Made by a program: the position numbers and the translations under genes. A stretch of DNA of 64,000 bases from an uncultured Candidatus Binatia bacterium (lineage in GTDB: Bacteria > Desulfobacterota > Binatia > Bin18), in the NCBI GenBank assembly GCA_965116085.1, contig OZ220487.1, positions 1,787,185 to 1,851,184 on the forward strand, in the 5' to 3' direction. Every line of letters begins with the position of its first letter. Positions within the stretch are counted from its first letter, which is position 1. The notes under the pieces are model-generated. The model ran no database searches. It had not been told where the DNA came from and saw only the letters and a program-made list of their open reading frames with translations. Shown in pieces: positions 2,953 to 54,005 of the stretch.

Positions 2953-3852
2953 GAGAGCCCGTTTGAAAACGCTTGGCCTTGAGGTTTGATCGTGATTCAA
3001 GCTTGGCATGTGGGCCCAAGCGACGCGAGGCCGTATGGCCGAGATCGAACGGAAGACGAAGCGTTACCCGACCGATCTGACGGATGAGGAAGGGGCGAGG
3101 GGCGATCCGGTGATGCCGAAGCCGGCGCGGACCGGACGACAGCGTGAAGTGGATCTTCGCGAGGTTCTGAACGCGATCCGCTCCTTGGCGCGCACGGGCT
3201 GTGGCTGGCGCATGCTACCGAAGGACTTGCCGCCCTGGCAGACGGTCTACTGGTGGTTGCGGCGCTTCGGGCGGCTTCTGCTGTTCCAGCCGATCCACGA
3301 CGTGGCCTTGATGCTGGCCCGCGCGCGCGCGGGCCGCGAGGCGAGCCCGCCGGGCGGGGGGCTCGACAGCCAGTCGGGCAAGGCACCGGCCGCCAAGGAA
3401 CGCGGCTTTGACGGGGGCAAGAAGATCACCGGGCGCAAGCGCCATGTCGCCGTCGCCACCGCTGGCCGCCTGCTCATGATCAATCTGACGAGCGCCGACA
3501 TTTCGGCCTCCGCTGGCGCGCAGAGGATCCTGGACGCCAGCCGCAAGCGCTGGCCTTGGCTCAAGCCTCTCTTCGCCGACGGTGCCTACGATCGCGGCCA
3601 GCTCATGGACAAGGCGGCCTTCCTCGACTTCGTCATCGAGATCGTCCGCAAGATGGAGGGCCAACAGGGCTTCGAGGTGCTGCCGCGGCGCTGGGTCGTT
3701 GAGCGAACCTTTGGCTGGATGATGCGATGGCGGCGCCTGGTGCGCGCTTACGCGCAGCGCCTCGACGGCTCCGAGGCCATGATCCAGGTCGCTATGGGTA
3801 GCCTCCTGCTCAGGCGTATCGCTCATTGAGCAGTGTTCTCAAACGGACTCTG
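2953..3852 (+). mobile_element. IS5-family insertion sequence
   Basis: Imperfect terminal inverted repeats: GAGAGCCCGTTTGAAAAC at 2953 against the reverse complement CAGAGTCCGTTTGAGAAC ending at 3852. They flank a single transposase ORF. Confidence 0.8.
3008..3829 (+). CDS. IS5-family DDE transposase
   Basis: Carries the motifs RYPTDLTDEE, LARTGCGWRMLPKDLPPWQTVYWW and ADGAYD...VERTFGWM. The likely true start is MAEIERK at 3035. Confidence 0.9.
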   Translation: MWAQATRGRMAEIERKTKRYPTDLTDEEGARGDPVMPKPARTGRQREVDLREVLNAIRSLARTGCGWRMLPKDLPPWQTVYWWLRRFGRLLLFQPIHDVALMLARARAGREASPPGGGLDSQSGKAPAAKERGFDGGKKITGRKRHVAVATAGRLLMINLTSADISASAGAQRILDASRKRWPWLKPLFADGAYDRGQLMDKAAFLDFVIEIVRKMEGQQGFEVLPRRWVVERTFGWMMRWRRLVRAYAQRLDGSEAMIQVAMGSLLLRRIAH

Positions 3853-4389: not shown

Positions 4390-4733
4390 TCCCGGTTCCG
4401 AGCGGGGCGCGGGTCTGGCTTGCGACGGGCGTGACGGACATGCGTCGCGGGATGAACACGCTGGCGCTGCAGGTCCAGCAGGGGCTGGGCCGCGATCCCC
4501 ATGCGGGCGATCTCTTCATATTTCGCGGACGCAAAGGCGATCTTTTAAAGATTCTCTGGCATGACGGGATCGGGACCTCGCTCTATGCCAAGCGCCTGGA
4601 GCGGGGCCGGTTCCAGTGGCCGGTGACGTCGGGCGGCGCGGTGTCGATCAGCGCGGCGCAGCTCGGCTACCTGTTGGAGGGGATCGATTGGAGGAACCCG
4701 GTCCGAACCTGGCGCCCGTCGCGGGCCGGCTGA
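4386..4733 (+). CDS. tnpB: IS66 accessory protein TnpB
   Basis: Carries VWLATGVTDMRRGMNTLALQVQ...LFIFRGRKGDLLKILWHDG, the typical IS66 Orf2 signature. Confidence 0.9.
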   Translation: MIPVPSGARVWLATGVTDMRRGMNTLALQVQQGLGRDPHAGDLFIFRGRKGDLLKILWHDGIGTSLYAKRLERGRFQWPVTSGGAVSISAAQLGYLLEGIDWRNPVRTWRPSRAG

Positions 4734-4804
4734 CAGGCGGCAAATGGACTCATCCGATAGGATTGCGATGGCGGCGGAGCGGTTGTTGTGATTCGCTTCC
4801 GGTC

Positions 4805-6451
4805 ATGCCCGACGGATCGGACATCGACGCTCTGAAGGCGGCGCTGGCTGCGGCGGAAGCCGAGGCGGTCGATGCCAGGGCGAAGGCGACCGAGGCCGAG
4901 GCGCGGGCCGCGAACGCCGAGGCGGAGGTGTCGGACGCCGAGGCGCAGATCGCCTCCCTGAAGCTGATGATCGAGACGCTCCGTCACGCGCTCTTCGGCC
5001 AACGATCGGAGCGCAAGCAGCGCCTTCTCGACCAGATGGAGCTCCAGCTCGACGAGCTCGAGGCGAGCGCTACCGAGGACGAGTTGGCGGCCGAACAGGC
5101 GGCGGGCGGCACGACGCATGTGAAGGCGTTCACCCGCCGCCGCCGGTCCGGGCGCAAGCCGTTCCCCGAACATTTGCCGCGCGAGCGCGTGGTGGTGCCG
5201 GCGCCGACATCCTGCGCGTGCTGCGGCTCGCAGAAGCTCTCGAAGATCGGCGAGGACGTCACCGAGACGCTGGAGGTCATTCCGCGCCAGTGGAAGGTGA
5301 TCCGGACGGTGCGCGAGAAGTTCACCTGCCGGGACTGCGAGAAGATCAGCCAGCCGCCGGCGCCGTTCCACCCGACGCCGCGCGGCTGGGCGGGCCCCAA
5401 CCTGCTGGCCATGATCCTGTTCGAGAAGTTCGGGCAGCATCAGCCGCTGAACCGCCAGCGCGACCGCTATGCGCGCGAGGGCGTCGATCTCAGCCTGTCG
5501 ACCCTGGCCGACCAGGTGGGCGCCTGCACGGTGGCGCTGAGGCCGCTGCACGACCTGATCGCAGACCATGTGCTGGCGGCCGAACGCCTGCATGGTGACG
5601 ACACCCCGGTGCCGGTGCTGGCCAAGGGCAAGACCGACAAGGGCCGGGCCTGGGTCTATGTCCGTGACGATAGGCCGTTCGGCGGGCCGGACCCGCCCGC
5701 GGCTCTGTTCCGCTACTCGCGGAACCGGTCCGGCGACCATCCGGTCGAGCATCTTCGCGACTTCGCCGGCATCCTCCAGGCCGACAGTTTCGCCGGCTAT
5801 AACCGCCTCTACGCGGCCGGGCGATTGCCGGGGCCTGTTACCGAGATCCCCTGTTGGGCACACGGGCGCCGCAAATTTTTCGAGCTCGCCGACATTGCGG
5901 CGAGCAAGGGGCGCGGCAGGAACGCGCCGCCGATCTCGCCGCTCGCGATGGAGGCGGTGAAGCGGATCGACGTGCTGTTCGACATCGAGCGCTCCATCAA
6001 CGGCGAGACCGCCGCGCGGCGCCATGCCGTCCGCCAGGAACTGAGCGCGCCGGTCCTGGCCGAACTCGAGACCTGGATGAAGGCCGAGCGCGCAAAGCTC
6101 TCCCGCCATTCCCCCGTGGCCAAGGCCATGGACTACATGCTCAGGCGATGGGACCGCTTCGCCCGCTTCCTCGACGATGGGCGCATCTGCCTGTCAAATA
6201 ATGCCGCTGAGAGGGCGCTCAGAGGTATTGCCCTGGGTCGGAAGTCATGGCTGTTCGCCGGCTCCGACCGCGGCGGCAGGCGCGCCGCAGCCATGTACAC
6301 CCTCATCGGCACCGCAAAGCTCAACAACGTCGATCCCCAGGCCTGGCTCGCCGACGTTCTCGGCCGGATCGCGGGAACCCCGCAGAACCGGCTCGACGAA
6401 CTTCTTCCCTGGAATTGGGTTCCGGAGAAGATGCTCGATCAAGCCGCATAA
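4805..6451 (+). CDS. tnpC: IS66-family transposase TnpC
   Basis: Has a coiled-coil N-terminus, a Cys cluster CACCGS...CRDCE, and a DDE region HGDDTPVPVL...LQADSFAGY...CWAHGRRKF. The start was chosen at ATG 4805 within the longer ORF 4616-6451. Confidence 0.9.
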   Translation: MPDGSDIDALKAALAAAEAEAVDARAKATEAEARAANAEAEVSDAEAQIASLKLMIETLRHALFGQRSERKQRLLDQMELQLDELEASATEDELAAEQAAGGTTHVKAFTRRRRSGRKPFPEHLPRERVVVPAPTSCACCGSQKLSKIGEDVTETLEVIPRQWKVIRTVREKFTCRDCEKISQPPAPFHPTPRGWAGPNLLAMILFEKFGQHQPLNRQRDRYAREGVDLSLSTLADQVGACTVALRPLHDLIADHVLAAERLHGDDTPVPVLAKGKTDKGRAWVYVRDDRPFGGPDPPAALFRYSRNRSGDHPVEHLRDFAGILQADSFAGYNRLYAAGRLPGPVTEIPCWAHGRRKFFELADIAASKGRGRNAPPISPLAMEAVKRIDVLFDIERSINGETAARRHAVRQELSAPVLAELETWMKAERAKLSRHSPVAKAMDYMLRRWDRFARFLDDGRICLSNNAAERALRGIALGRKSWLFAGSDRGGRRAAAMYTLIGTAKLNNVDPQAWLADVLGRIAGTPQNRLDELLPWNWVPEKMLDQAA

Positions 6452-7164: not shown

Positions 7165-7266
7165 AACGAGACCTTCCTATTCCTTGCGTTCATGCCGATC
7201 ACCGAACATCCGACTCGTTCACTATCAAGCCAGTCTGTAGCTGACCGGTTGAACATTCCTCGATTC

Positions 7267-10200
7267 TCAACTTGCCTCGCCCGAAAGGACTTCCCAGACC
7301 CGCTTGTATCCGGTCCCCGACAACGCCGCTCCGCCGGGCCTCACACCTTCCCAGTCATCGGCGCCAAGTCCCTGCAGGAAACGCCGCGCCTCTCCCACCG
7401 AATACCTGCGTTCGTCCCTTCCGTTCACCTCCCGGTACAGACTGCCCAGTGCCTCGGCCGCGCTACGCGGTACGGAATTCATGCGCATCAGCACCGCATC
7501 CTCGCTGCTTACACCGTGATAAATCATTGCTGGAAGGGTATTGATCCTGCGTTTTTCCGCTTCTGAGAGCGTGTCGAAATCGATCCCCGACACTCGACTG
7601 AGAGCCGAAACGCCCCACGTTCCGCTGTTCGCGATGGTGCGATAGATCGCTCTGCATGCGTCCGTCAGCGCCGCAGTACCCGCTTCGTCATCTTTCTCGC
7701 GGCTGAAATACTTGCCCGCGATCGCTTCAAGGCCCTTTCCGTTCACCCAGTCGTTGGTGATCTCCGAGATCCTGCTCCGGTCGGAACCGCTGCCGCCCAA
7801 CTCGACCAAGTCCTGCTTGAGTTGTGGCACCCTCAACATAACGCCGAACAGGTCCGCCATTCTGCCTCCGTTGCCGAAGAGGCTCTCCGGCGCCCAGTCA
7901 GCGGCGGTGAGCCCGCTCTCCAAGTTGCGAATGCCGCCCATTGCCGCCCGGACACCTTCCGGCGAGAAGCCGGTCGAATCCGCGAGTTCCGCGATCCCTT
8001 CGGGCATTGCGGCGAGTTCGCGCGCATAGCTCTGCGTCGCGTCCAGGAGAGCATCCGCCTTTCGCCTTTGCTCCGGATCGTTCCGCATAGAGGTGTATCC
8101 GTACGTCTGCCTCAGAAGTTGCTCCGATTCTGCGAGCACCGCGTCCAGATTCTTCTTCTCCGCCCAAAGATGGGCGATGTAACAGCGAAAATCCTCCCAC
8201 TGATCTTTCCAGAGCACTTCCGACAGCTGCGCTAAAGACCCTTGGGCGGCAAGTTCGTCCAGGAGCACCACAAGACGGGATACCAGCGCGCCTGTATTCC
8301 GACTCACAAACTCCATCATCGCATCGCGATCAGTCCCCTCGGACAGACCAACCACGCCTACGCTGTCGTGACCGATGCGACCCGCACGACCCACAAGATT
8401 CCAGAACTCCCGTGCCCCGATTTCCACCGAACTCTTACCCTGCGGCACAAAACGCGAGGCTAGGAAGACTGACGACACCGGGAAGTTGATGCCTTGCGCA
8501 ATCGTCGACGTCGCACACAGCATCCGAAGGCTGCCTGTCTCCGCGAGCCATTCCATAAGCGCCCGGACATCGTCGGACAGCCCTGCATGATGCACGCCGA
8601 TGCCCTGCTCGAGCATATCGATCAGCGGGAATTCGGCACTGATCTCGGTGCGCAGAAAGTCCTGAATCAGCCTGATGTCGGACGGCACCTCGTCCATCTT
8701 CGGAAGGCTCCGCGCCGCTTCACCAGCCATCTTCCAGACCGTTGGAATACTGTTGGTCACGGCAATGCTGGTGCCCCGCGCCGACATCACGGCCCCGATT
8801 GCCGCCGTTTGAAGTCCGAGCCTCTTCTGCACACCATTCGCAAGCACTTGGCTCTTCGGCACATCGATCGGTTTCACGCCTCCCACGCGGTGCGTTCCGT
8901 GAAGCGGCATGGCCTTTTCCGTCGCGGTCAGCGTCTCGAAGTCGAGATGCCAGCCGCCGCGTTCACTGTCATTTGCCACCGCCCGGTAGAGGCCGATGAT
9001 CCGCTCGTTGGGCTTCCACGGAACTGTACCCAGGCTGATTGCATTGCCCGCATCGATGTCCTGCGCCAGCCAGCGCGCCACCGATTCCGTTCCTTCCACG
9101 AAAGGCATCAGCAGGAGGAAGTTTGCCTGCGGACAGTCGCGCTTGACCGTCGCCAAGAGCAGCTCAATCCGGAGGCCCCGACCCTCCGATTCCAAGTTGT
9201 GGGCCTCGTCCATCACTACCAGAGCGAGAGGACGGTCCACCTTCCTGTTGCGAATCACAAGTGACAGCTTTTCCGGCGTTGCGACGAGAATGTGGAACGG
9301 CTCGTCCCTGTCGTTGAGTAGCTCTTCCTCGAACGCGTCCACCTCAATGGCCGCGGTCAACTGTTCGACTCGCAGGCCGATCGGCTCGAAGTCGGCGCGA
9401 AGGCGCCGCGTGATCTGTCCCGACAGCGCACGGGTGGGCGCGACATATACCACCCATCCGCGGTCGCCCTGGAACTGGTTCAATGCCTGCAAGATGCGGA
9501 ACTGCGCGAGCAGTGTCTTGCCGCCCGAAGTGGGCAAGTCGACTACGATCGCGGTCTTCGCCTGGTCGAGCAGCCCCTGCTCAAGCAACGCCGCGCGCTG
9601 TGGCGGCAAGAGCTCGAACATCGCCTGCTGTTTCCGGTGCGTCAGAGAGCGCACGAATTTCGTGGTTCGCGAGTTAACTGTTCGCGTCGCCCACCACAGC
9701 GAATTCGTTACCATGATGCGCGCCGTGGCGTGCAGCCATCTGAGCACCACCTCGTGCTGCGCGTCCCCTGAAGCGGCCGCGGCCCGAATTCCCGCTTCGA
9801 AGTGTTTGTCCAGTGTGCCGAACGGATCGCCCGGTTCGCCCTGGAGCATGTACCTTACCAGCGTCTCCGTCGCTTTCGCCCAGTTGTAAAGTGCCGCCAG
9901 CCGAAGGGCGATCGCCCGGTCTACCGCCTCCGAACCATTTCGCAGACGATGTTCTTCGTGAACCTTCTGGTCGTTGCGCAACCCTGCGATGATCTCGCGG
10001 ATCCGGTCCAGATCGTCCCACCCCTCTTTGCGAAATAACCTGACCCAGCAGGCGAACAACCTGTACAGGAGCCTGCGGTCCCATTCGGCGTCCGCGACGC
10101 TCGGCGCCCTCAACGCCTCTCCCTGTTCCCGATACCAGCGCCGCAGGTCCGACCAGCGATCGCCGCAATAGGCGGCCGCGGAGAGTTGAAGCACGAAGAA

Positions 10201-10545
10201 CAGGCGATCGTGCGTTTCAGCCGGGACAGGAAGGAGCCTGCGGACGTCGAACGCTCGGAACGAAGCGGCTACCGCCTGATCCCGGAGTTGCTGCTGCTCG
10301 CCGGCCGGACGGCTCAGCTCGTCGAGGCCCTCGATGGCAGCCAGCTCGAATGCCAGCGCCACCCTTTCTAGGAACGGCTCGTCCTCCGAATTCTCCTCGA
10401 ACGCGAAACTGATCTGCTTGCCGACCGCTCGCCGCGCCAAACGCTGGTTGACGAGCTCGCCTGCGCGTGCCAGCTCCTCCGCCCCGATGGCCGAAACGGC
10501 CCAATGTTTGTTGAGCGCTTCCAATGCTCTGCCGGACAGGCTCAT
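7267..10545 (-). CDS. Ski2/Hel308-like SF2 DExH helicase (HamB-like)
   Basis: Carries motif I PTSGGKTLLA, motif II VMDEAHNL, plus VHHAGL, CATSTIAQGINFP and GRAGRIGHD. The start was set at ATG 10545, which forms an ATGA overlap with the upstream gene's stop (10542-10545). Confidence 0.85.
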   Translation of the reverse strand: MSLSGRALEALNKHWAVSAIGAEELARAGELVNQRLARRAVGKQISFAFEENSEDEPFLERVALAFELAAIEGLDELSRPAGEQQQLRDQAVAASFRAFDVRRLLPVPAETHDRLFFVLQLSAAAYCGDRWSDLRRWYREQGEALRAPSVADAEWDRRLLYRLFACWVRLFRKEGWDDLDRIREIIAGLRNDQKVHEEHRLRNGSEAVDRAIALRLAALYNWAKATETLVRYMLQGEPGDPFGTLDKHFEAGIRAAAASGDAQHEVVLRWLHATARIMVTNSLWWATRTVNSRTTKFVRSLTHRKQQAMFELLPPQRAALLEQGLLDQAKTAIVVDLPTSGGKTLLAQFRILQALNQFQGDRGWVVYVAPTRALSGQITRRLRADFEPIGLRVEQLTAAIEVDAFEEELLNDRDEPFHILVATPEKLSLVIRNRKVDRPLALVVMDEAHNLESEGRGLRIELLLATVKRDCPQANFLLLMPFVEGTESVARWLAQDIDAGNAISLGTVPWKPNERIIGLYRAVANDSERGGWHLDFETLTATEKAMPLHGTHRVGGVKPIDVPKSQVLANGVQKRLGLQTAAIGAVMSARGTSIAVTNSIPTVWKMAGEAARSLPKMDEVPSDIRLIQDFLRTEISAEFPLIDMLEQGIGVHHAGLSDDVRALMEWLAETGSLRMLCATSTIAQGINFPVSSVFLASRFVPQGKSSVEIGAREFWNLVGRAGRIGHDSVGVVGLSEGTDRDAMMEFVSRNTGALVSRLVVLLDELAAQGSLAQLSEVLWKDQWEDFRCYIAHLWAEKKNLDAVLAESEQLLRQTYGYTSMRNDPEQRRKADALLDATQSYARELAAMPEGIAELADSTGFSPEGVRAAMGGIRNLESGLTAADWAPESLFGNGGRMADLFGVMLRVPQLKQDLVELGGSGSDRSRISEITNDWVNGKGLEAIAGKYFSREKDDEAGTAALTDACRAIYRTIANSGTWGVSALSRVSGIDFDTLSEAEKRRINTLPAMIYHGVSSEDAVLMRMNSVPRSAAEALGSLYREVNGRDERRYSVGEARRFLQGLGADDWEGVRPGGAALSGTGYKRVWEVLSGEAS

Positions 10546-11345
10546 TGTTCCGCTCCTGCCCGCCGTGAAACCATCTCCTCTCCAATACCGTCCAGGCTTT
10601 CCTGCGGTAGGTAGAGTGCAAGCAGTTCGATACGCGTGCCCTCGGGACAAGCACCGGCGAGGCTACCGACCCGCACCCGCAAGTCATCCTGATGGGGTTC
10701 CACGTCCCGAACAAGACATCCATAGAGCTGGATGTCCGACGTGTTCCGCAGATACCTGCTTGCCGCCCGCTCGAAACGCGCCCGCCATGGGGCTGACCCG
10801 GCCCGGTGACCGAGATATTTTACGAGATCGTCGCGGATGGCTTCCTCATCGCGCAGATCTTCCAGTTGCTGTTTCAGTCCGGTGCGGCCGTACATCGCTC
10901 CGGGAGGATAGCTCCGTTCGCTCGATGTCTTCACCTCGCCGAACGCGAGGCAATCGCCGTCGTCGTCGATCCCGAATCCGACCAAGTCCGCCCCCGGCAA
11001 GCTGGAACCGCTCTTTCTCTCGTCCCGACCGTCCGGCCAGGGGAAGCTGCATGACCGATGGTCTGTCAGGTATGTCTCCGCGATCGCTTCGCCCACCCGC
11101 CAGTCCTCGATCCTGTCAGGATCCTCCAGTACGCGCCGCAGCCCCTCCTGGGCGAAATCCGTCTCCGCCAGGCTCGCGAGAATGTCCTCGATATTCGCCT
11201 TGCCTTCGTCGTCAAACAGCACAGCCGCAACTTGGTCATCCATCGCGGCGCTCAGTTCGTTGTCCGACCATCGCAACCCCAGTCCCGAACACGGAGCCTC
11301 GCCCAAACGATATAGGACCTCGCCCGCGCCGACCGTCACCCGCAT
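10542..11345 (-). CDS. PD-(D/E)xK nuclease-like protein (HamA/DUF1837-like candidate)
   Basis: 267 aa with PGADLVGF...FGEVKTS, a D...ExK pattern. It is translationally coupled to the helicase. The size and gene order match Hachiman HamA-HamB. A GTG at 11339 is an alternative start. Confidence 0.55.
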   Translation of the reverse strand: MRVTVGAGEVLYRLGEAPCSGLGLRWSDNELSAAMDDQVAAVLFDDEGKANIEDILASLAETDFAQEGLRRVLEDPDRIEDWRVGEAIAETYLTDHRSCSFPWPDGRDERKSGSSLPGADLVGFGIDDDGDCLAFGEVKTSSERSYPPGAMYGRTGLKQQLEDLRDEEAIRDDLVKYLGHRAGSAPWRARFERAASRYLRNTSDIQLYGCLVRDVEPHQDDLRVRVGSLAGACPEGTRIELLALYLPQESLDGIGEEMVSRRAGAEQ

Positions 11346-11565
11346 CCTCCTGACGCGCCCGTGCGCTCACAGGTGGTCGCCTGAATCCGCTTGCCTCGCA
11401 TGCACCCGATCAACGAAAATTCATACGCCGTTACCTCTCTCATGTTTGAACGATTTCTCGCTACAAGCTATGCGGTAACAGGAAAGCCCAGACAGGCCAT
11501 GGAAGTCCCATGTCTTCCAAGAACCCCTAGTCTGCCGATGCACACATCCATGTTCATACCGCCAT

Positions 11566-11781
11566 TCACAGTTTGCCATATTGATAACGATTCTTGATAT
11601 TGGTGTTGAGGTATATTCCTTTGGAATCCGCTTGCATAAATTCTTGGAAAACCCATTCCTCAACACCGTAATACGCGTATGTTGCTCCCGACTTCAAAAA
11701 TCTAACGTGTAATTCCTGCGCATCCGGGTCGTATCCGATCGCTTCCACATTCGATGAATCCACAAAGTGCATTTCAGGCAT
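11566..11781 (-). CDS. KTSC domain protein
   Basis: 71 aa: VDSSNVEAIGYDPDAQELHVRFLKSGATYAYYGVEEWVFQEFMQADSKGIYLNTNIKNRYQY. The start overlaps the HerA stop by 8 nt. Confidence 0.8.
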   Translation of the reverse strand: MPEMHFVDSSNVEAIGYDPDAQELHVRFLKSGATYAYYGVEEWVFQEFMQADSKGIYLNTNIKNRYQYGKL

Positions 11782-13645
11782 TGGTAGGTTCCTCCCCTAC
11801 GTTTCCACTGTCTTCAATTGTTGCGGTTGTAGTTTGAGAGCGCCAGTTCTCCAACGCGCGGGAGTACAATACGCCATCTGGACGTTCCTCGACCTGCCAT
11901 ACGTCCGGTAGTTTGGGGTCATCACCGACTGGCTTTTCCTTTGCCTTACGTACCCGTACGCGTGAAGGGATCGGCATGACTTCGCCAAGAAAGATTCCCT
12001 CTCCGGTTCGCAACGACGGGAGCTGTTCGATGAGTCCACCCAAGTCATCGGGAACCGCTCCTGCAACTTTACTACGATCAACAGAATTTGTTACGCGCAG
12101 CGCCACCAGAGAACCGCATTGGCTCAATACGGCGCTGTCTATCTCCGAAGGACGCTGTGTCACGAGCATGAGGCCAATGCCATACTTGCGGCCTTCCTTC
12201 GCTATCATGGATAGCGTCCGGTGAGCGGTCGTATCATCGCCCTCAGGAACAAAGCGATGTGCCTCATCCAGCACAACGAGAAGCGGTTGTTGACGGCCTC
12301 CTATCGGCATGTCCTGCGCCCAGAATAGCATGTCATATATTACTCTAAGCATGGTGCCAACAATAGTTGGAAGGACTTCAGACGGCAGGCCCGAGACATC
12401 GAATATCGTAATCGGCCTGTCGTGCCCGACCCAGTCCCTTACCAAGGAATCGAGATCACTTTGGACGTCGCCGCTCAGGGTGGGTTCAAGCCCACCGCCA
12501 GGTGCGAAGAGAAATGAATAGCGGCTATCATTCAATCGGCTACGCATGAGATCGAGCTGACGCTCGATATTGCGCTTGCGCTGGTTCTTGTATGGTTCCT
12601 GATTGTATGGACTTGCCGCAGGGTATCGATCAGACCTTAGTTGGCTTGCATCGCCGACCTCATCCGGTGGATAGGCGTCTTCAGCCGTTTGCTGATTTCC
12701 CGCAGTTCTAAAGGTGATTCTTTCAAACCGATCAAGCTGGTACCAAAGCTCCTTTATGCTGAAGGGTACCGGTGAATCCGCCGTCAATGTCTCAGGAAGC
12801 GGCGGGATAGCCACGCGCTGCGCCGCCGCCACTTTCATATCGAGAACCTGGTCTCTGATGGTCGCTTCATGATTTGGCTGTAGCCCGCCTAATGTTAGCT
12901 GCTGAAGTTCGAAGAATGGGAGCGCCCAAAAGGGCACCCACAATGGCCTTTCCCCTGCCTGCTCGTCCGGACGAACGCTAAACACTCGTGCCTTGTCGCC
13001 AAGTGCCGTTGCGTATTCTCCGTGCGGATCAATAACAAGAGCACGTGCGTTCGGCAGACTGCCATTTGAAACCGTTTCGAGCAGTACGGTCACAAGATTC
13101 GATTTACCTGCGCCCGTGGAACCGACGATAGCGCTGTGCCGGCTTACAAGCCCGGCCACGCTGACATCGGCCGATATACCCGATGTCGCAGCAATCTGCC
13201 CGACCGAGATCGTGCCCTTCTTACCCTTCGCCCAACCATAGATGACCTTGAGATCATCGTTTGTCACGAGATGTACTTCATCGCCCACGGTAGGATATTG
13301 ACCGATGCCTCGTTCAAATTCGCCCCCAAGTCCTTCACCGAACAACACGACCGTCATCCAGCGGTATCCCAAAAGACGAAGCTGTGAGTCTGTTTCGAGA
13401 GCTGCGGCGAGCATTTCCTCAGAACTTCCTGGAGGCGCCGCATCGGCCCCGATCTGCGTGCAGACTGCATAGAGGTTCGCGTAGCCCAAAGGAAGGCGGA
13501 AGAAGCCACCAATCTGTCCGACTCGATACGACTCGCCGCCAATCATGACCAATGTGGATGGCATGTCTTCGCGTAGTCTTACGCGGACAACCGCTCCCGT
13601 AACGGACGCGACTTGGCCGATGTACGTCGGATCAGCGGGCGACAT
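11774..13645 (-). CDS. HerA-type (DUF87) ATPase/helicase
   Basis: Has an N-terminal barrel-like region, Walker A GSTGAGKSN and Walker B LLVVLDEAHRFVP. It lies 17 nt downstream of the SIR2 gene. Confidence 0.9.
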   Translation of the reverse strand: MSPADPTYIGQVASVTGAVVRVRLREDMPSTLVMIGGESYRVGQIGGFFRLPLGYANLYAVCTQIGADAAPPGSSEEMLAAALETDSQLRLLGYRWMTVVLFGEGLGGEFERGIGQYPTVGDEVHLVTNDDLKVIYGWAKGKKGTISVGQIAATSGISADVSVAGLVSRHSAIVGSTGAGKSNLVTVLLETVSNGSLPNARALVIDPHGEYATALGDKARVFSVRPDEQAGERPLWVPFWALPFFELQQLTLGGLQPNHEATIRDQVLDMKVAAAQRVAIPPLPETLTADSPVPFSIKELWYQLDRFERITFRTAGNQQTAEDAYPPDEVGDASQLRSDRYPAASPYNQEPYKNQRKRNIERQLDLMRSRLNDSRYSFLFAPGGGLEPTLSGDVQSDLDSLVRDWVGHDRPITIFDVSGLPSEVLPTIVGTMLRVIYDMLFWAQDMPIGGRQQPLLVVLDEAHRFVPEGDDTTAHRTLSMIAKEGRKYGIGLMLVTQRPSEIDSAVLSQCGSLVALRVTNSVDRSKVAGAVPDDLGGLIEQLPSLRTGEGIFLGEVMPIPSRVRVRKAKEKPVGDDPKLPDVWQVEERPDGVLYSRALENWRSQTTTATIEDSGNVGEEPTNA

Positions 13646-13662
13646 AATGGGCTAATCCACCG

Positions 13663-14874
13663 TCATTGATTCGAGGAACTCGCAGAAGGACGCAAATCAC
13701 CAATCTTCATCACCCCTGTCTTCGCGTCCGCGTTCTCGCCAGTTTCCGCGGATGCAGTTGCCTTCAGCTCAAAAAGCGCCGTCCATGAATGAGGGCTCTC
13801 GACCGGCGCCCACGCCGCCCGTCGGCCACCAATGATGCCGGTGTTGGGTCCAATCATAATCATGTTGCGACGCTGGTACGCGCGTTTGACCAGCTCGCAA
13901 TCCTCTGGCCTCTCATCGAACTGCAAGGCATATACGTGTGTGCGAGGTCTGTTCTCAAGGGCGCCAAACACGAGATTATTGATATGCTCGTCGCCGAAGT
14001 TGAAACCCGCTACGATCAGCAATGCGTCATCCTGCTCAAGAAAACGGCTGAGTCGGTCGGTAAAGGCGGCATAGGGCTGCTGACGGGATTCATCGTACTT
14101 CTGAAACGACGGGTAGATCATCTCCCCTGCCGGATCGGGCTCTCCCCGCACCACGCGAACGCGCCCGTCTTGATCGATGCGTCGCCATGTGACCGACCCG
14201 TGCATCTTCCAGAGCCGCGTCCAGGTCGCGCCGGGCGCCGCTTCCAAACGGCGTAAGCTGTCCGGATGGAAAAAGGGCTGGAAACTCCCCACGAATCCGT
14301 CGAACAACGGGATACGTTCCGCTTCGAGCCCATGTTCGAGGAGCACATCGTAGTTAACTGTAAATATCTCTACCGGGTTCTGGCGTGATGCCTTGACCAG
14401 CCACCGAGCGAATTTCCGATGGGGTAAATCCACAGGAATGCCGTCCAAGTCCGGAGTGACGACTCCCGCGATGGTCTTCCGAACCGACTCTTCTAACTTC
14501 CCAATCTCTACTTTATTGAGCCCAGACAGGGTATCGTCCTTGCCGACGGCGCCAAGCATCATGCGAAGCCGTGACAAAATGTTTTCAACGTTAGGATCTT
14601 GGTTATGTTCCTTACAATGAACCTCAATTAAACTCCACGCATGCGTATACTTTTCGCCCAATTCGCCCGCATCCTTTCTGGCAATTTCTGTCAAGCCCGC
14701 CACTGCCGGGATGAGCGGTTGGGTTTGAGATTCTTCTGCGGATGACGGTACCCGGACAGCGCAGGATGTTCCTGCGCCAAAGAAAAATGCAATTGGCTTG
14801 TCGTGACGCGACAGATGATCCCGCAAATCGCCGAGTGCCTTTTGCGCATCGTGTAAGTGCTGCTCGCCATTCAT
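13663..14874 (-). CDS. SIR2-family (SIR2_2) NADase-type protein, HerA-associated
   Basis: Carries FFFGAGTSCAV, TVNYDVLLE and LWKMHGS. There is an ATGA overlap with the upstream nuclease gene (14871-14874). Confidence 0.85.
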   Translation of the reverse strand: MNGEQHLHDAQKALGDLRDHLSRHDKPIAFFFGAGTSCAVRVPSSAEESQTQPLIPAVAGLTEIARKDAGELGEKYTHAWSLIEVHCKEHNQDPNVENILSRLRMMLGAVGKDDTLSGLNKVEIGKLEESVRKTIAGVVTPDLDGIPVDLPHRKFARWLVKASRQNPVEIFTVNYDVLLEHGLEAERIPLFDGFVGSFQPFFHPDSLRRLEAAPGATWTRLWKMHGSVTWRRIDQDGRVRVVRGEPDPAGEMIYPSFQKYDESRQQPYAAFTDRLSRFLEQDDALLIVAGFNFGDEHINNLVFGALENRPRTHVYALQFDERPEDCELVKRAYQRRNMIMIGPNTGIIGGRRAAWAPVESPHSWTALFELKATASAETGENADAKTGVMKIGDLRPSASSSNQ

Positions 14875-16370
14875 GACGTGCCCTCTGGCCGAACCGTCAA
14901 GTCCTTGATAGCATCCCGCAACACCCGAGTGGCTCGACAGTCGTCTTCGTTATAGTCAAGAATTCGTTGCCGGATCGCGGTATCGCGATCTTCCACCCAT
15001 CGATGGAACCACTCGATTGAAGCCGCTCCGGAAGGATGGATATCCCGCCAAGAGAAGCCTAGATACTTGGCTAAGGTCTTTATTGAGAAATCCCAAGTAG
15101 GCCACTCAGTCGCCTTCCTCACCACGTCACTGTAAAGATCAATTGAATGCGCCGGATCGAATAGCTCTTCGATCTCGTCCTCACTGCAAACATCGGGGTA
15201 TTTTTCTCGAAGCTTACGGTAGATCGTACGTTCGTATTTTGAATAGAAGTAGATGGCACAGGGCCTTCGCTGCCTTATGTATGCCCAAGCTTCTGCAAAC
15301 GCGTTCTTTTCCGCCTCCGGTGTCGGATCATCCGCGAAGAAAAATACAAATTTCTCTGTAGTATTGTTGCCAGACCAACGTTCTACAAAGCCGTGCAGGT
15401 AGCAAATATCCCGCATGGGATCGACTTCGATATCGAAGAACAGTTCGCAGTCGTAGGTTGGTAGATTGACAGGGGCCCTTAGGAACGGCTTTGCGTCCTT
15501 GGTTGTGAGAAGGGTGGCACGATCATGAAACTTCAGCAACGTATCCCTTCCTACCCCGGGAAACGCTGTCTTCCTGCCCTCGATGAACCTCTCCGGGTTC
15601 GCCTCAGCAAGCGCAGTAACGGTAGGCAACTCCTGGTACATTACGTCGCGCCTCGATCGTCCGAGCTCGGGGATCATCGTTAGATCACCGCTTTCCTCAA
15701 GACGTTTGACGCAAGCCGAATACCAGTGGCAGAGCTTGCAGGCGGAACTAAACGCTGGAAGAGTCTGCTCGCTTCCAGCGACGATGGCCTCAGCCTCGCG
15801 TAGGATATCCTGATAATCCTGCCATAGCGTTCGCGGATTTCGTTTGCCATACAGCGTGTCGAAGTCGTACGGCACCTCGATCCCATGTATATCCCACACA
15901 AAGGCTCGGCGACCAGCAGACAGCCCCTTACGTTCGAGGATGTCCGTGTACAACCCAAGCTGAACCGCGTAATGGACTTTAGGCTTCGATGCTTCTTCCC
16001 GGCTTTCCTCACCGATGCCCGACTTAATGTCGCCCGCTACATAAGCTGTGCCCTCCTTGCGAAGCAAATCGGGGGCGCCCAATAGCCCATCGACCTGAAT
16101 GCGTCCGCTATAGATTAAGGTCTCGCCCTCTTGCATCGCTTTAAACGTAAGCCGCTCCTTTTCGTCACCTCCGTACGGTGACAGGTCAAGGAAGGGCATC
16201 TCTAGACCGTCAATAACTTCTCGTTCGTATAGAGAGCCCTTCTCCCAGAGAAGTTGGACAAATGGATTTGGTTCGTCCCGTAGTAGCGGATCCGCAAAGA
16301 GATCCATTGTTATGCGATGCGGGCACGCTACTAGGTCATACAGCATTGCGGCAGTTACATGCGCAACCAT
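14871..16370 (-). CDS. TM0106-type RecB/Cas4-like nuclease fused to a DnaQ/RNase-H-like exonuclease domain
   Basis: The N-terminal part has GAPDLL...GDIKSG, QLGLY, an N-terminal Cys plus CKLCHWYSAC. The C-terminal part has FDIEVDP and YNEDDCRATR. AGGAGG lies about 5 nt upstream of the ATG. Confidence 0.75.
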   Translation of the reverse strand: MVAHVTAAMLYDLVACPHRITMDLFADPLLRDEPNPFVQLLWEKGSLYEREVIDGLEMPFLDLSPYGGDEKERLTFKAMQEGETLIYSGRIQVDGLLGAPDLLRKEGTAYVAGDIKSGIGEESREEASKPKVHYAVQLGLYTDILERKGLSAGRRAFVWDIHGIEVPYDFDTLYGKRNPRTLWQDYQDILREAEAIVAGSEQTLPAFSSACKLCHWYSACVKRLEESGDLTMIPELGRSRRDVMYQELPTVTALAEANPERFIEGRKTAFPGVGRDTLLKFHDRATLLTTKDAKPFLRAPVNLPTYDCELFFDIEVDPMRDICYLHGFVERWSGNNTTEKFVFFFADDPTPEAEKNAFAEAWAYIRQRRPCAIYFYSKYERTIYRKLREKYPDVCSEDEIEELFDPAHSIDLYSDVVRKATEWPTWDFSIKTLAKYLGFSWRDIHPSGAASIEWFHRWVEDRDTAIRQRILDYNEDDCRATRVLRDAIKDLTVRPEGTS

Positions 16371-16388
16371 TATCCCTCCTACATTTGG

Positions 16389-16405
16389 ATTGTCTTGCAG
16401 ACAAT
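16389..16405. promoter_or_regulatory. Perfect palindrome ATTGTCT-TGC-AGACAAT upstream of the nuclease-SIR2-HerA-KTSC operon (candidate operator)
   Basis: Read directly. It lies 19-35 nt upstream of the start codon at 16370. Confidence 0.3.
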
Positions 16406-16832
16406 AGTAATGTCAGCAGTCATGCGTTCCTGACTTCGATCTCTCCGAAGTAAATTTGTGACGGTCCCCCGTGCCTATGCTACTTGAGTCTTGCAATAAA
16501 TCCCGGGATCAACTAAGAATTTACGCTTCTTCTGCCCACCTCCGGCCTTTCCCAGACTGATTCCTTCCGTATCGTAATCCTCTGATCTGGCCATCAGCAG
16601 CTCAGTCTTCTTCTTGTGGGACATATGGCTGCTCGCTAAATCAGTGTTCCTGCTTGTTTCCTCGGCGCGCCGGTAGCGGGCACGGTGCCCCAGCGTCAAC
16701 CCCTTACTCATGCTTGATTTCTCGCAGGCCGGCTCTCCCGCTGGAGCGCGCGCTGTCTTCATACGGCAAGCGGCCGAATTCAACACGAAGCCCCTCCTGT
16801 GCCCGCTTGTCCTCGATCGCCCGTTATGCCGA

Positions 16833-17117
16833 TCACGACCCGCCTGCGTTCACGGCGTCCCGCAACGGCTTGCCGGCCTTGAAGGTCGGCGTAGTCGAAG
16901 CGGCGATGTTCAGGCTCTCGCCGGTCCTCGGATTGCGCCCCGTACGGGCGGGGCGGCTCCTGGTGCCGAATGTCCCGAAGCCGACGATCCGCACATCCTC
17001 GCCCCTGGCGAGGGTTTCCGCGATCGCCTCGAAGACGGCATCGACGGCGTCTCCAGCCGCCGACCGCCCGACTCCGATCCGGTCGGCCACACGGCCTGCC
17101 ATCTCCGACTTGTTCAC
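16833..17117 (-). CDS. HU-family DNA-binding protein
   Basis: Reads VNKSEMAGRVA...RIVGFGTFGTRSRPARTGRNPRTGESLNIAASTTPTFKAGKPLRDAV. GTG start at 17117; an alternative ATG is at 17099. Confidence 0.9.
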   Translation of the reverse strand: MNKSEMAGRVADRIGVGRSAAGDAVDAVFEAIAETLARGEDVRIVGFGTFGTRSRPARTGRNPRTGESLNIAASTTPTFKAGKPLRDAVNAGGS

Positions 17118-17369
17118 CCATTCTCTCCCTGCGCTGCCGACTTCTCCCGACAGACCATAGCCGAGGCCGGCGCCCACGGTTAGCACGAAGCGCCGGCCAT
17201 TTCGATTCCGGCAGCGGTCGTTCCGCACCCTTCCTGCCCGAGCGGCGCCTCCGGCGTTTCGCACGGCATGGTCCCGCGGTTCGGCGTCAGGAGTTCGAGG
17301 CCGGCGTCCTCCGGGCGATTCCAGGGGGCCGAAGGGCGGACCCCGCGCCGCCGTCGGGGAGGTCGATCC

Positions 17370-18227
17370 ATGTCCAGCCGCATCGCCGATGTTCCCGTGC
17401 CGCCGAGGTGCAACGAAATGATCCGGGCCGGCGCCCTCGTCGCCATCAACACCAGCGGAGGCAAGGATTCACAGGCCATGACCATCCTGCTGTCCCGGAT
17501 CGTTCCCCGCGACCAGATCGTGGCGGTTCACGCCCCGCTCGGCGAAGTGGAATGGCCCGGCACAGTGGAACATATCGAGGCAACGCTACCCGCCAGCGTG
17601 CCGCTGATATTCGCCCCCGTCGCGTCCGGCAAGACCCTGCTCGAACGGATCGAGGAACGGGGTCTCTGGCCCTCGAATTCGGCGCGATGGTGTACCAGCG
17701 ATTTCAAGTCTGGACCTATCCAGCGCGAGCTGCGCCGCTATCTGAAGACCCATCCGCGTTTCGGCGGACGGCTCGTCAACGCCATGGGCATGCGCGCGGA
17801 GGAAAGCCCGGCGCGCGCAAGGAAGGCGCCGTGGCGGCGCAATGACAGGATGAGCGTCGCGGGCCGCGAGGTCTTTGACTGGCTGCCGATTTTCGACCTC
17901 TCGACGGAAGAGGTATTCCGCGTCATCCGTCACGCCGGCCAATCGCCGCACCAGGCCTACGCCACCGGCATGTCGAGGCTGAGTTGCAGCTTCTGCATCC
18001 TGGCGTCCCGCGCCGATCTGCGCCGCGCAGCAGAGCTTCGTCCAGGCCTCTACGCGAAATACGTGCAACTCGAACGGCGAATCGCCCACACGCTCTCGCC
18101 CACACGGAAGTATCTGCCGGAGCTGACGGGCATCCCGGTCGACGGCACCGTCTCCACGCCGGTCCCGCCCCGAGGGCTGAAGCGGGATCGTCCCGCGCGG
18201 TTCCGAGCCGCGTCAGTTTCGCGGTAG
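17370..18227 (+). CDS. PAPS-reductase-family / PP-loop protein
   Basis: PP-loop NTSGGKDSQAM and a C-terminal CSFC. GGGGAGG RBS precedes ATG 17370. Confidence 0.8.
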   Translation: MSSRIADVPVPPRCNEMIRAGALVAINTSGGKDSQAMTILLSRIVPRDQIVAVHAPLGEVEWPGTVEHIEATLPASVPLIFAPVASGKTLLERIEERGLWPSNSARWCTSDFKSGPIQRELRRYLKTHPRFGGRLVNAMGMRAEESPARARKAPWRRNDRMSVAGREVFDWLPIFDLSTEEVFRVIRHAGQSPHQAYATGMSRLSCSFCILASRADLRRAAELRPGLYAKYVQLERRIAHTLSPTRKYLPELTGIPVDGTVSTPVPPRGLKRDRPARFRAASVSR

Positions 18228-19940: not shown

Positions 19941-20384
19941 ATGAGCTTCGGACTGAACAAGGTGCAGATCATCGGCCGCCTCGGCGCGGACGTCACCGTC
20001 AACCACCTCGCCTCGGGCGGGCGCGTCGCCAACCTGAGCATCGCGATCGACGAGTGGTTCATCAACAAGCAGACCGGCGAGAAGGTCGACAGGACCGAGT
20101 GGCACCGGGTCGTGACCTTCCAGGACGGGCTGATCGACATGCTCGGGAAGCACGCCACCAAGGGCCGGCTGGTCTACATCGACGGCAAGCTCCAGACCCG
20201 GCGCTGGTCGAAGCCGGGCGAGGACGGCGACCGCTTCTCGACCGAGATCCTGCTGGTCCCCGGCGGGCGCGTCCAGTTCCTCGACAAGCCGAACGGCAAC
20301 GCCGCGCAGCCCGGCCCGGACGCGGCGGACGGCTCCGCGCCGGCCGGCGGCGACCCGATGGACGGGGACGAGATCCCGTTCTAG
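19941..20384 (+). CDS. ssb: Single-stranded DNA-binding protein
   Basis: OB-fold N-terminus (NKVQIIGRLGADV...TEWHRVV), a Gly/Pro/Ala-rich tail and an acidic C-terminus DGDEIPF. Confidence 0.95.
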   Translation: MSFGLNKVQIIGRLGADVTVNHLASGGRVANLSIAIDEWFINKQTGEKVDRTEWHRVVTFQDGLIDMLGKHATKGRLVYIDGKLQTRRWSKPGEDGDRFSTEILLVPGGRVQFLDKPNGNAAQPGPDAADGSAPAGGDPMDGDEIPF

Positions 20385-22585: not shown

Positions 22586-24268
22586 GTGTCCCGACAGGAC
22601 ATCACAACGGGGATCGGCCCCGAACGTGAAAACCGAAAGGAAAACGACATGACCTTCCATACCGATACCACCGAAACCGCCGCGCAGTCCGCAACCGCGA
22701 TCGTCTGCGACCTGGCGGAAGAGTTCTCGTCGATCCATGTGGTGAACCTGCGGGGTAATGCCCGGACATCGGGGGAACGCCGCCGCTCGGAAGGCGATAA
22801 CGCCTTCGGCCAGGGGTCCCGGGCGCCGGTCGCGGTCACCGTCCTCGCGAAGAATCCGGACGCGCAGCATGACGGCTGCCGCATCCTCTACCGCGACATC
22901 GGCGATTATCTCTCCCGCGAGGACAAGCTGGGGCTGTTGCGCGAGTGGGGGTCGATCGCCAGCGTCACGGACTGGGAGGAGACCGCCCCCGACCGGCACC
23001 ACGACTGGATCGGCCAGCGCGACGAGGCGTTCCGGGCGCTCTATCCCCTGGGATCGAAGACGGCGAAGGCGGGCAGAACGGACGAGGCGGTGTTCCGGCT
23101 GTTCAGCAATGGGTACAAGTCGGGTCGGGATTCGTATGTCTACAATTTCGACCGTGAGGCTTGCGCTGCCAGCGCCCGCAGGATGGTGGACGATTACCGC
23201 AGGGCCTTGCGGGAACTGTATGATGCGGCAGACGCGAACGCCGAAAAGCCGGACATCGAGGAAATCGCAAGGCGCCATTCCTCATATCTGCGATGGGACG
23301 ATAAGCTGAAACAGCAGCTTCGGAGACGAACGGAGGCAGCATTTTTCGAAGACTGTATCCGAAAGATAGCGTATCGGCCGTTCGTCAAACTACATCTGTA
23401 TGCCGATCCAACATTTGCTCAGCGTGCAGCCCTCACAGGAGACATCTTCCCCACCGCCGAGACAGGGAACCGTGCGATCTGCGTCCCGGGGGTCGGCTCG
23501 ACCAAGCCGTTCTCCGCGCTCGTCGTCGATACGATGCCGGACCTGGAGCTGATCTCGAAGGGCCAGTGCTTCCCGCGATACCGCTATGAGCGCCGCGACA
23601 ACCAGCAGAGCCTGCCCGGCATGGGGCCGCCGTCGGAGCGCATCGACAACATTGCCGACACCGCGTTGCGCGCCTTCCGGGTGCGCTACGGCGACAGCGC
23701 GATAACGAAGGACGCGATCTTCGACTATGTCTACGGCGTTCTGCATGCGCCTTCATACCGCGAGCGTTTTGCCAACGACCTGGCGAAGGAGTTGCCGCGC
23801 ATTCCGTTCGCCGACGATTTCCATGCCTTCGCCGAGGCCGGCCGCCGCCTCGCGGCACTGCATCTCGGCTACGAAACCTGCGAGGAATATCCGCTGCGGC
23901 TCGACTATGCCGGGAAGGGGGAGCCCGTGCCCGCACAGTTCCGGCTCGGCCAGCGCGCCATGCGCTTCGCCGACGCGGACCGGACCGTTCTCATCGTCAA
24001 CGACCTGGTCCGCCTGTCGGGCATCCCCCCGCAAGCACACGAGTATCGGGTCAATGGGCGCACCCCGCTCGAATGGCTGATCGACCGTTACCGTATCGTC
24101 CGCGACCGGCAGAGCGGCATCGTCAATGACCCCAACGGCTGGTTCGACGACCCGCGCGACCTGATACCGGCGCTGCGCCGCATTGTGCAGGTCAGCGTGG
24201 AGACCGTTGCCATCATTGCGGGCCTTCCCTGTCCGTTCGCGGAACTGCGGGAACAGTCGGTCGGAGAG
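22586..24268 (+). pseudogene. Type ISP restriction-modification enzyme, C-terminal region only (N-terminal helicase/methylase part absent; last codons split off by IS4)
   Basis: Carries CFPRYRYE, YVYGVLHAPSYRERFANDLAKELPRIPF, EYRVNGRTPLEWLIDRY and IVNDPNGW. No methyltransferase motifs lie upstream. The reading frame enters IS4 sequence at 24269. Confidence 0.7.
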
Positions 24269-45076: not shown

Positions 45077-45327
45077 CAAAAGATGTCCTCGATGGCGTCT
45101 GCATGGGCTTTCGAGCGGGGCACGATTCTGAATTCCAGATCGAGCGCGGCGAGGATCGCTAGGATGGTTTCCAGCTTCGTGGCTGGATTACCTGTCTCGA
45201 TCAGGGAAATCGTCTCCTGCCGCAAACCGGCGATGTTGCCGAGTTCCGTCTGATTGAGGGCCCGCTTTTTGCGGGCGCGTTGTACGATGTTTCCGATCTG
45301 CTTCGGATTGCGTGCTAAATCTGCCAT
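45076..45327 (-). CDS. hipB: HipB-like XRE-family HTH antitoxin
   Basis: 83 aa with RKKRALNQTELGNIAGLRQETISLIETG. It lies immediately upstream of hipA. Confidence 0.85.
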   Translation of the reverse strand: MADLARNPKQIGNIVQRARKKRALNQTELGNIAGLRQETISLIETGNPATKLETILAILAALDLEFRIVPRSKAHADAIEDIF

Positions 45328-46987: not shown

Positions 46988-47044
46988 CGAGATCGTGCGG
47001 ACCGTGTGCGCGTTGCGGCGGGAGCCGGCAATGCACCCGAACCG

Positions 47045-48260: not shown

Positions 48261-48299
48261 CGATTCGAACGGCGCACCCGGCGGGGTGGTGCTACCACA

Positions 48300-53997: not shown

Positions 53998-54005
53998 GAA
54001 AGACG

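Follow-up and report, generated by a model that had tools for sequence, protein, structure and literature searches.

Here we present an analysis of a four-gene operon on the minus strand, at positions 11,566 to 16,370, of a stretch of 64,000 nucleotides (nt) from an uncultured Candidatus Binatia bacterium (the window; GenBank assembly GCA_965116085.1, contig OZ220487.1, positions 1,787,185 to 1,851,184). The operon encodes, in this order, a TM0106-family dual nuclease, a SIR2 protein, a HerA ATPase and a small KTSC protein. We read the locus, with a probability of roughly 60%, as an abortive-infection SIR2-HerA system of the Paenibacillus type, in which the KTSC module of the HerA arm is split off as a separate protein and which has captured a facultative end-processing nuclease. 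The association of the TM0106 nuclease with SIR2-HerA is, as far as the literature searched shows, new here, whereas the SIR2-HerA core was known already and the coupling of HerA to KTSC had been remarked upon. The features of the locus are the following (aa, amino acids).

14871..16370, minus strand: gene for the TM0106-family dual nuclease, 499 aa; it stands first in the operon and is facultative (TIGR03491, PDDEXK_1, RNase_H_2)
13663..14874, minus strand: gene for a predicted SIR2 NADase effector, 403 aa (SIR2_2, PADLOC PDLC04093, match to 8W9L)
11774..13645, minus strand: gene for a predicted HerA hexameric ATPase/translocase, 623 aa (DUF87/HerA, PADLOC PDLC04105, match to 8WIV)
11566..11781, minus strand: gene for the KTSC protein, 71 aa (PF13619, alignment to 8WIV_A 632-695)
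14871..14874, minus strand: ATGA stop/start overlap of the nuclease and SIR2 genes (translational coupling), with the same 4-nt overlap in 21 loci when the genome and metagenome surveys are taken together
13646-13662, minus strand: 17-nt gap between the SIR2 gene and herA
11774..11781, minus strand: 8-nt overlap of the herA stop and the KTSC start; the tblastn matches of HerA and KTSC overlap alike in 18 of the 45 intact loci of the genome survey
16369..16416, minus strand: two overlapping sigma-70-like promoter matches just 5' of the nuclease start codon, each agreeing with the consensus at 9 of 12 positions
11485..11498, minus strand: weak terminator-like hairpin with a 5-bp stem, 68 nt 3' of the KTSC stop codon (low confidence)

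An earlier note on this DNA, made from the letters alone, had claimed four tightly packed minus-strand open reading frames (ORFs), joined by these three junctions, and both frames and junctions were recovered at the same positions. Every domain that it assigned (TIGR03491, PDDEXK_1, RNase_H_2, SIR2_2, DUF87/HerA and KTSC) scored above its curated cut-off in profile searches, every motif that it named was located, and the junctions together with the PADLOC and Pfam scores uphold its view of a tightly coupled four-gene operon containing a SIR2-HerA system. The four-gene layout is not a chance pattern. DNA homology to four loci with unrelated flanks (L005, L008, L009 and L013) is limited to positions 11560-16358 of the window, i.e., to the four-gene unit, and because this homology ends at the nuclease start and at the KTSC stop, the four genes have been inherited as a discrete unit. 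The G+C content is 0.52-0.56 across the four genes, as opposed to 0.60-0.73 in the flanks. On the coding strand, promoter-like matches near the operon occur solely just 5' of the nuclease gene and are likely to represent the operon promoter; a consensus scan found none between this gene and that for SIR2. In total, the region has no more terminator-like sites than shuffled sequence. The KTSC ATG is preceded at 9 nt by a GGAGG ribosome-binding site that lies inside the end of herA.

The core of the operon is judged from its sequence to belong to the SIR2-HerA family and to be closest to the type of Paenibacillus sp. 453MF. The 403-aa protein matches SIR2_2 (PF13289) with 60 bits and the PADLOC SIR2 model PDLC04093 with 448 bits, and carries the motifs FFGAGTS (residues 31-37), NYD (174-176) and KMHGS (223-227), of which the catalytic residues N174, D176 and H225 are invariant among 12 homologues. 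The 623-aa protein matches DUF87/HerA (PF01935) with 107 bits and the PADLOC HerA model PDLC04105 with 513 bits, with Walker A (GSTGAGKS, residues 175-182) and Walker B (VVLDEAH, 457-463) motifs. The two marks of membership in the SIR2-HerA family, a sirtuin with catalytic N/D/H residues and an adjacent, co-directional HerA with both Walker motifs, are therefore present.

In a sequence search of the PDB, the best matches of the two proteins were Paenibacillus chains, 8W9L for SIR2 (202 bits) and 8WIV for HerA, residues 6-604 of the latter aligning to residues 11-603 of 8WIV_A, including the helical part of the arm (472 bits, E 2e-140). According to the available text of the structural paper, in which the cryo-electron microscopy of the complex was published in 2024, 8WIV_A is the 696-aa HerA of the Paenibacillus sp. 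453MF SIR2-HerA system (8WIV/8W9L/8WLD), SIR2 rings are docked on the HerA hexamer in a complex of about 1.1 MDa, and complex formation switches on NADase, ATPase/helicase and an ATP-inhibited DNase (PMC11472057). The catalytic and Walker motifs, the KTSC module and the gene order, SIR2 followed by HerA, are shared with the window, whose proteins would by analogy be expected to form the same rings on a hexamer and to acquire the same activities in the complex. The 2026 classification of E. coli Sir2-HerA (Nezha; 8J4U/8SU9) into types I-III comprises two-gene systems, mentions no accessory gene and describes a two-component logic, with ATP restraining the NADase, that the window core would share (PMC13434337). 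The E. coli chains are far more distant, at 105 bits for the window HerA and 57 bits for SIR2, and KTSC, which is present at the window, did not match the E. coli HerA chain.

The fourth protein matches the KTSC domain (PF13619), described in Pfam as a probable nucleic-acid-binding domain, over profile positions 1-58 of 58 with 82.2 bits (gathering threshold 25). In the PDB search the 71-aa protein aligned to residues 632-695 of 8WIV_A (E 3.8e-9) and also matched the solved small KTSC proteins 4RGI and 7X8C, on which the literature search found no relevant paper. The C-terminus of the window HerA is the linker that stands before the KTSC domain where the two are fused in homologues. Since the one protein aligns to this C-terminal segment and the other to residues 11-603, HerA and KTSC together (623 and 71 aa, i.e., 694 aa) reconstitute the fused Paenibacillus protein of 696 aa. 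The covalent fusion of KTSC to HerA seen in the Paenibacillus type is replaced at the window by a separate polypeptide, so that the module is supplied in trans. The earlier note had taken the KTSC protein for an unexplained accessory, a possible sensor or regulator, and this idea gives way to its homology with the HerA C-terminus of a solved system. Among the other solved defence HerAs matched by the window HerA (8ZIQ, 9C1M, 8XAU and E. coli Nezha 8J4U/8SU9), the PDB search returned no KTSC match. A programmed frameshift fusing HerA to KTSC was considered and rejected in view of the good ribosome-binding site and ATG, of junctions that vary between loci (overlaps, or gaps of tens of nt) and of the best 120 KTSC relatives, all of which are free-standing proteins of about 71 aa. 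The protein also matches two PHROGs of unknown function (phrog_3292, E 2e-16; phrog_8113, E 1e-9), i.e., phages encode KTSC-like domains as well.

In the Paenibacillus HerA, the arm domain comprises aa 576-696, wraps around the RecA-like domain of the neighbouring subunit and stabilizes the split-spiral hexamer; in its available text the structural paper places the emphasis on the arm helices alpha19-20 and does not name KTSC (PMC11472057). A coupling of HerA-like ATPases to a gene for a KTSC-domain protein, regarded as DNA-binding, was noted by Iyer et al. 2022 (PMC9503650, section 3.7.1) for systems which, unlike the window, have an endoDNase in place of the sirtuin. That remark cites unpublished observations and covers neither the split-versus-fused relation to the solved HerA nor a TM0106 nuclease. 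The KTSC finding is thus essentially explained by existing structures and this prior remark, while the split state and the near-universality of the gene lie outside the two-gene PADLOC model and were not found in the literature searched.

A scan by SIR2 alignment over one genome per species yielded 55 loci from many phyla, which were annotated with iterated profiles and tblastn. Clade A (SIR2 at least 44% identical to that of the window) comprises 35 intact loci, of which 34 have KTSC and 18 of 34 a full-length nuclease directly upstream; clade B (33-35% identity) comprises ten intact loci, all ten with KTSC (fused in L054) and 0 of 7 with a nuclease upstream, the nuclease denominators being the loci with enough upstream sequence. 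Because KTSC is present in 34 of 35 loci of the one clade and in all ten of the other, it is a core component of this SIR2-HerA lineage, usually provided in trans. Overall, HerA is followed by KTSC, as a gene or as a fused domain, in 44 of the 45 intact loci, and the sole exception, L033, has an insertion sequence (IS) transposase (DDE_Tnp_1, 9095-10222) directly after HerA. Fused HerA-KTSC ORFs were found in L054 and L110. Both genes flanking the SIR2-HerA pair therefore recur beside its homologues, and on this point the claim of the earlier note withstands the check that the note had set for it. Two loci of the survey carry insertions elsewhere in the operon, i.e., one of about 2.6 kb that splits HerA in L030 (7486-10083) and one of about 1.3 kb between HerA and KTSC in L037 (9052-10366).

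The nuclease is a full-length member of the TM0106 family (TIGR03491), with 215.8 bits against a cut-off of 97.45 and residues 6-486 covering model positions 2-460 of 462. Its N-terminal half is a Cas4/RecB-like PD-(D/E)XK domain (PDDEXK_1; D101, D114/K116, Q137/Y141) with four putative iron-sulphur (Fe-S) cluster cysteines (C16, C211, C214 and C220), and its C-terminal half a predicted DEDDy 3'-5' exonuclease of RNase H fold (RNase_H_2; D313/E315, D411, Y473/D477). The corresponding motifs are GDIKSG (residues 113-118), QLGLY (137-141), CKLCHWYSAC (211-220), FDIEVD (312-317) and YNEDDC (473-478). In 12 homologues, solitary copies included, D114/K116, Q137/Y141, C211/C214/C220, D313/E315 and Y473/D477 are invariant, and C16 is conserved in at least 90%. 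The protein shares with CRISPR Cas4 the PD-(D/E)XK core, the QxxxY motif and the C...CxxCx5C Fe-S signature but carries the DEDDy exonuclease domain in addition; its score against the Cas4 family TIGR00372 is 16.6 bits (equivalog cut-off 65) and its E-values against the PADLOC Cas4 models are 1e-4 to 1e-3. No NurA family was found among the Pfam or NCBIfam matches of the four operon proteins. The nuclease is accordingly classed as Cas4-like in its predicted fold and as neither a Cas4 nor a NurA. A sequence search found no matching PDB chain. An AlphaFold model built with only 12 similar sequences supplied was mediocre (mean predicted local distance difference test score, pLDDT, 66.7, with a poor N-terminal half), and its Foldseek matches (Cas4, proofreading exonuclease domains of PolB, ExoI and MrfB) were weak, all with E of at least 0.02; they agree with the domain calls as weak corroboration.

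The nuclease family is very conserved, the best 120 matches being at least 69% identical to the window protein. A metagenomic set of 80 nuclease loci (57-78% identity) was searched for neighbours; 53 of these loci were informative and the remainder uninformative, and a copy was counted as solitary where at least 2 kb of flank was available. SIR2-HerA adjoins the nuclease in 13 of the 53 informative loci (25%) and is its commonest partner. Regarding the neighbours of solitary copies (57 scanned), no common partner emerged but defence genes were abundant. Type IIG restriction-modification genes (MmeI-type; e.g., L062 and L066) accounted for 6 of the 57 nearest neighbours, the second most frequent kind after SIR2-HerA, and the others included DISARM-like SNF2, GmrSD and DUF4411 genes as well as integrases, HU genes and housekeeping genes. 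TM0106-type nuclease domains also occur inside larger proteins (L038, 9333-12860, minus strand, 1175 aa; L085, 2260-7575, 1771 aa; L103, 6956-9439, 827 aa).

Nucleases 58-78% identical to that of the window are paired with SIR2-HerA-KTSC sets that are only 33-42% identical to that of the window. Four arrangements were found: the nuclease gene may lie upstream and overlap, lie upstream at a distance of about 100-130 nt, face the operon convergently, or follow a fused HerA-KTSC gene downstream. In L061, from Vineibacter, a 74% identical nuclease lies tail to tail with a SIR2-HerA-KTSC operon. The nuclease has thus joined two deeply divergent SIR2-HerA clades (about 34% identical) in four gene orders. 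In a neighbour-joining tree of 102 nucleases, which has no support values and in which the class of solitary copies includes short contigs, linked nucleases occupy about eight or more separate places among the solitary ones, and the operonic nucleases of clade A are concentrated in two neighbouring sub-branches. The link between nuclease and SIR2-HerA is real, recurrent and facultative, and it is undescribed as far as was found in the literature. In the papers searched, neither a description of a RecB- or Cas4-like nuclease linked to SIR2-HerA nor anything relevant on the function or structure of TM0106/TIGR03491 was found, and PADLOC v2 has no model for the nuclease or for the KTSC protein. 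The statement of the earlier note that it knew of no described variant of this kind holds in this respect for the nuclease, but not for the coupling of HerA to KTSC, which is on record in PMC9503650.

Five clade A loci that lack the nuclease have other DNA-end enzymes adjoining the operon, as follows.

L031: RNase T-type DEDD exonuclease, upstream of the operon
L042: DUF2779 protein, 36 nt upstream, which in BLAST weakly resembles the Cas4-like half of the nuclease (E 0.004)
L030: UvrD-helicase/PD-(D/E)XK protein, upstream of the operon
L038: fusion of a TM0106-type nuclease with a Dna2/NAM7-like superfamily 1 (SF1) helicase (AAA_11/AAA_12), convergent, 40 nt from the SIR2-HerA-KTSC operon
L024: UvrD-like helicase, 9 nt downstream of the operon

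The presence of end-processing enzymes at these five loci is suggestive of a recurring functional slot. In three Dehalococcoidia loci, a conserved ORF of about 280 aa lies 74-102 nt upstream of SIR2 on the plus strand (L033, 5031-5927; L036, 5060-5899; L049, 5061-5903), and the three versions are 72-86% identical to each other. It was considered as a substitute for the nuclease and rejected, as it resembles no nuclease and matches no Pfam family; it may be another lineage-specific accessory gene.

In the mechanism proposed here, the separate KTSC protein, translationally coupled to HerA, would dock in trans onto the HerA hexamer at the position of the arm, supply the missing end of the arm that holds the adjacent protomer and so stabilize the ring, and it may also contact DNA. 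The self-contained TM0106-family nuclease would have been captured at the head of the operon, in translational coupling with SIR2, as a facultative DNA-end-processing partner that resects nicked or broken phage DNA. Resection would create or prolong end-bearing DNA, which would drive HerA and in turn unlock SIR2. The rationale for such a partner comes from the E. coli subtype (type III), in which a nicking activity within HerA itself, in place of the separate nuclease gene of the window, generates DNA ends that drive the ATPase, so that ATP is lowered and the NADase is released from its ATP block (PMC13434337). Alternatively, the nuclease may serve as a second, DNA-destroying effector, as NurA does with archaeal HerA. 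In either role it would be dispensable for the existence of the core system, and elsewhere it would act independently. The closest functional analogy is perhaps the archaeal HerA-NurA pair (with Mre11-Rad50), in which a HerA translocase gene likewise adjoins a dedicated DNA-end nuclease; HerA-NurA end resection is discussed in the available text of the Paenibacillus paper (PMC11472057). The window differs from that pair in its nuclease, a Cas4-like PD-(D/E)XK domain joined to a DEDDy exonuclease instead of NurA, in the want of an Mre11 or Rad50 gene in the operon, and in its defence context with a SIR2 effector. Protection against phage with depletion of NAD+, and the assembly of a SIR2-HerA supramolecular complex, are known from homologues (PMC11472057, PMC13434337) and are predicted for the window locus.

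Several observations weigh against the proposal that the nuclease is a captured partner of the system. About 75% of the informative nuclease loci (40 of 53) have no SIR2-HerA nearby, copies 71-72% identical to that of the window stand alone beside an MmeI-type enzyme (L062) or a SNF2/methylase set (L063), and the nuclease is absent from every informative clade B genome locus. The sole difference between operonic and solitary copies lies in roughly the last 7 residues, which leaves no evident domain for docking. Beside intact SIR2-HerA-KTSC genes the nuclease has decayed by internal deletion in L002-4 and to residues 381-499 in L020, with a weaker trace in L012; in L035 only residues 440-497 are left, and SIR2 and HerA are degraded as well. 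The validated Paenibacillus system, reportedly first established as an anti-phage system by Gao et al. in 2020, works as two genes. The available text of the structural paper describes two genes as well, whereas the window adds a translationally coupled nuclease upstream, and that text stresses alpha19-20 with nothing specific to KTSC, the docking and role of which we infer (PMC11472057). Finally, the alternative nucleases flanking other operons could equally reflect the crowding of defence islands, i.e., be neighbouring defence genes. The picture of the nuclease as a fixed fourth component, as drawn in the earlier note, has to be given up; the gene is facultative and in some lineages decayed, and roughly three in four of its close relatives are solitary.

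Many of these points also favour a rival explanation, in which the nuclease is an autonomous single-gene defence or repair module that resides in defence islands and is by chance co-transcribed with SIR2-HerA-KTSC in one lineage and contributes independently or additively. The solitary copies, including those beside restriction-modification genes, their heterogeneous, defence-rich neighbours without a fixed partner, the want of a distinguishing added domain in the operonic copies and the decay of the gene beside intact SIR2-HerA-KTSC would all be accounted for. Against it stand the 4-nt overlap with SIR2 in 21 loci, the linkage to both divergent clades, which takes four gene orders and is scattered over many parts of the nuclease tree, the rank of SIR2-HerA as the single commonest neighbour, and conserved module boundaries that take in the nuclease; we regard this explanation as possible but doubtful.

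A second rival concerns KTSC, which might be an independent small nucleic-acid-binding sensor or regulator that, e.g., binds phage DNA or RNA and then switches HerA on or off. The domain is a probable nucleic-acid-binding one according to Iyer et al. 2022 (PMC9503650), it is a stably separate polypeptide in the clade of the window, which would allow a regulated association, and KTSC-like domains are found in phage protein families such as phrog_3292. This role is nevertheless improbable, as the protein is homologous to a covalently attached part of the arm domain of the solved HerA, an arm that in the available text of its description contacts the neighbouring subunit, as the family has fused forms (L054 and L110) in place of split ones and vice versa, and as its occurrence in all but one of the intact loci is that expected of a core subunit. 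A function of the nuclease in moving or maintaining the cassette (homing, recombination or anti-restriction), and not in defence, is very improbable, for although Mu-like/TniA-like transposase genes and IS elements lie near the operon in the window and in L001 and integrases near solitary copies in 2 of 57 cases, no transposase or integrase is linked to the nuclease consistently, a search of 50,697 phage records gave no match and plasmids gave only matches of less than 30% identity, and the conserved DNA block stops at gene boundaries, without the shared flanks that the ends of mobile elements leave.

A wider reading may be put forward tentatively, and we consider it rather unlikely as a whole. 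The TM0106 nuclease subfamily might be an unrecognised, widespread and modular end-resection partner of defence systems, i.e., of SIR2-HerA-KTSC and perhaps of type IIG systems, that converts a first nick or cut into ends that drive HerA and release the SIR2 NADase, or finishes off the phage genome without RecBCD, with unrelated exonucleases (RNase T-type, DUF2779, UvrD-PD-(D/E)XK) filling the role in other lineages.

The window is a dense region of defence genes and mobile elements. Directly downstream of the KTSC gene lies a PADLOC candidate system, PDC-M23A/B (334 and 1387 bits; 7267-10650 and 10542-11345, both on the minus strand), the large protein of which is a Hachiman HamB-like DEAD-box helicase. 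This pair was considered as part of the four-gene unit and rejected, as it accompanies the block in L001/L006 only, where DNA identity is 88% over 9.5 kb (window 7182-16654). Directly upstream of the operon lies a gene for an HU-type DNA-binding protein (16833-17264, minus strand), and HU genes also flank two solitary nuclease copies. It is followed by a gene for a protein with a PAPS-reductase domain (17268-18227, plus strand) and, at 19941-20384 (plus strand), by a 147-aa ORF that reads as SSB-like and has a third-position G+C (GC3) of 0.99.

Transposase genes were found at 598-2112 (minus strand; Mu-like, rve/Mu-transpos_C_2) and, on the plus strand, at 3008-3829 (IS5-like, DDE_Tnp_1), 4616-6451 (IS66) and 45927-47288 (YhgA-like). 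Because a Mu/TniA-like transposase set also adjoins the block in the closest relative, L001, the defence genes may be the cargo of a transposon. The window contains no tRNA gene. A SIR2-APAZ gene (55376-57139, plus strand; PADLOC Aga_SIR2-PNTD1-PNTD2, 601 bits) overlaps that of a short class I prokaryotic Argonaute (57136-58560, plus strand; pAgo_I, 658 bits), and this pair (55376-58560) is assigned to the SPARSA type, i.e., a second, unrelated SIR2-based defence in the window that is predicted to deplete NAD+. Further genes or fragments of defence type encode a HipA toxin (43745-45079, minus strand) and a Fic/SoFic-like protein (53955-55403, plus strand), and a weak match to PD-T7-1 lies at 51450-52913 (minus strand). 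A low-G+C block of three ORFs (35308-38602, minus strand) includes a partial N6_N4 methylase and a protein resembling PD-Lambda-5_A/PDC-M38A. A DpdF-like DEAD-box fragment is located at 47388-48905 (minus strand), and the ORF at 22586-24313 (plus strand) has of a Type ISP enzyme the C-terminal specificity domain alone.

A KTSC domain thus forms the end of the C-terminal arm described as unique to the solved Paenibacillus HerA, and in most natural members of the lineage this domain is a separate subunit. Catalogue entries of two genes miss this near-universal third gene, and constructs cloned without KTSC may be defective. The commonest optional partner of the system is an uncharacterised, highly conserved family of dual nucleases without a solved structure, on which the literature search returned nothing. 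Because DNA ends gate both the ATPase and the NADase of Sir2-HerA (PMC13434337), a nuclease within the operon offers a testable handle on the coupling of damage sensing to NAD+ depletion. Should the nuclease prove to be no more than a neighbour, what is left is an improved annotation of a known system; if the modular end-resection reading is true, the nuclease would be the bacterial defence counterpart of HerA-NurA.

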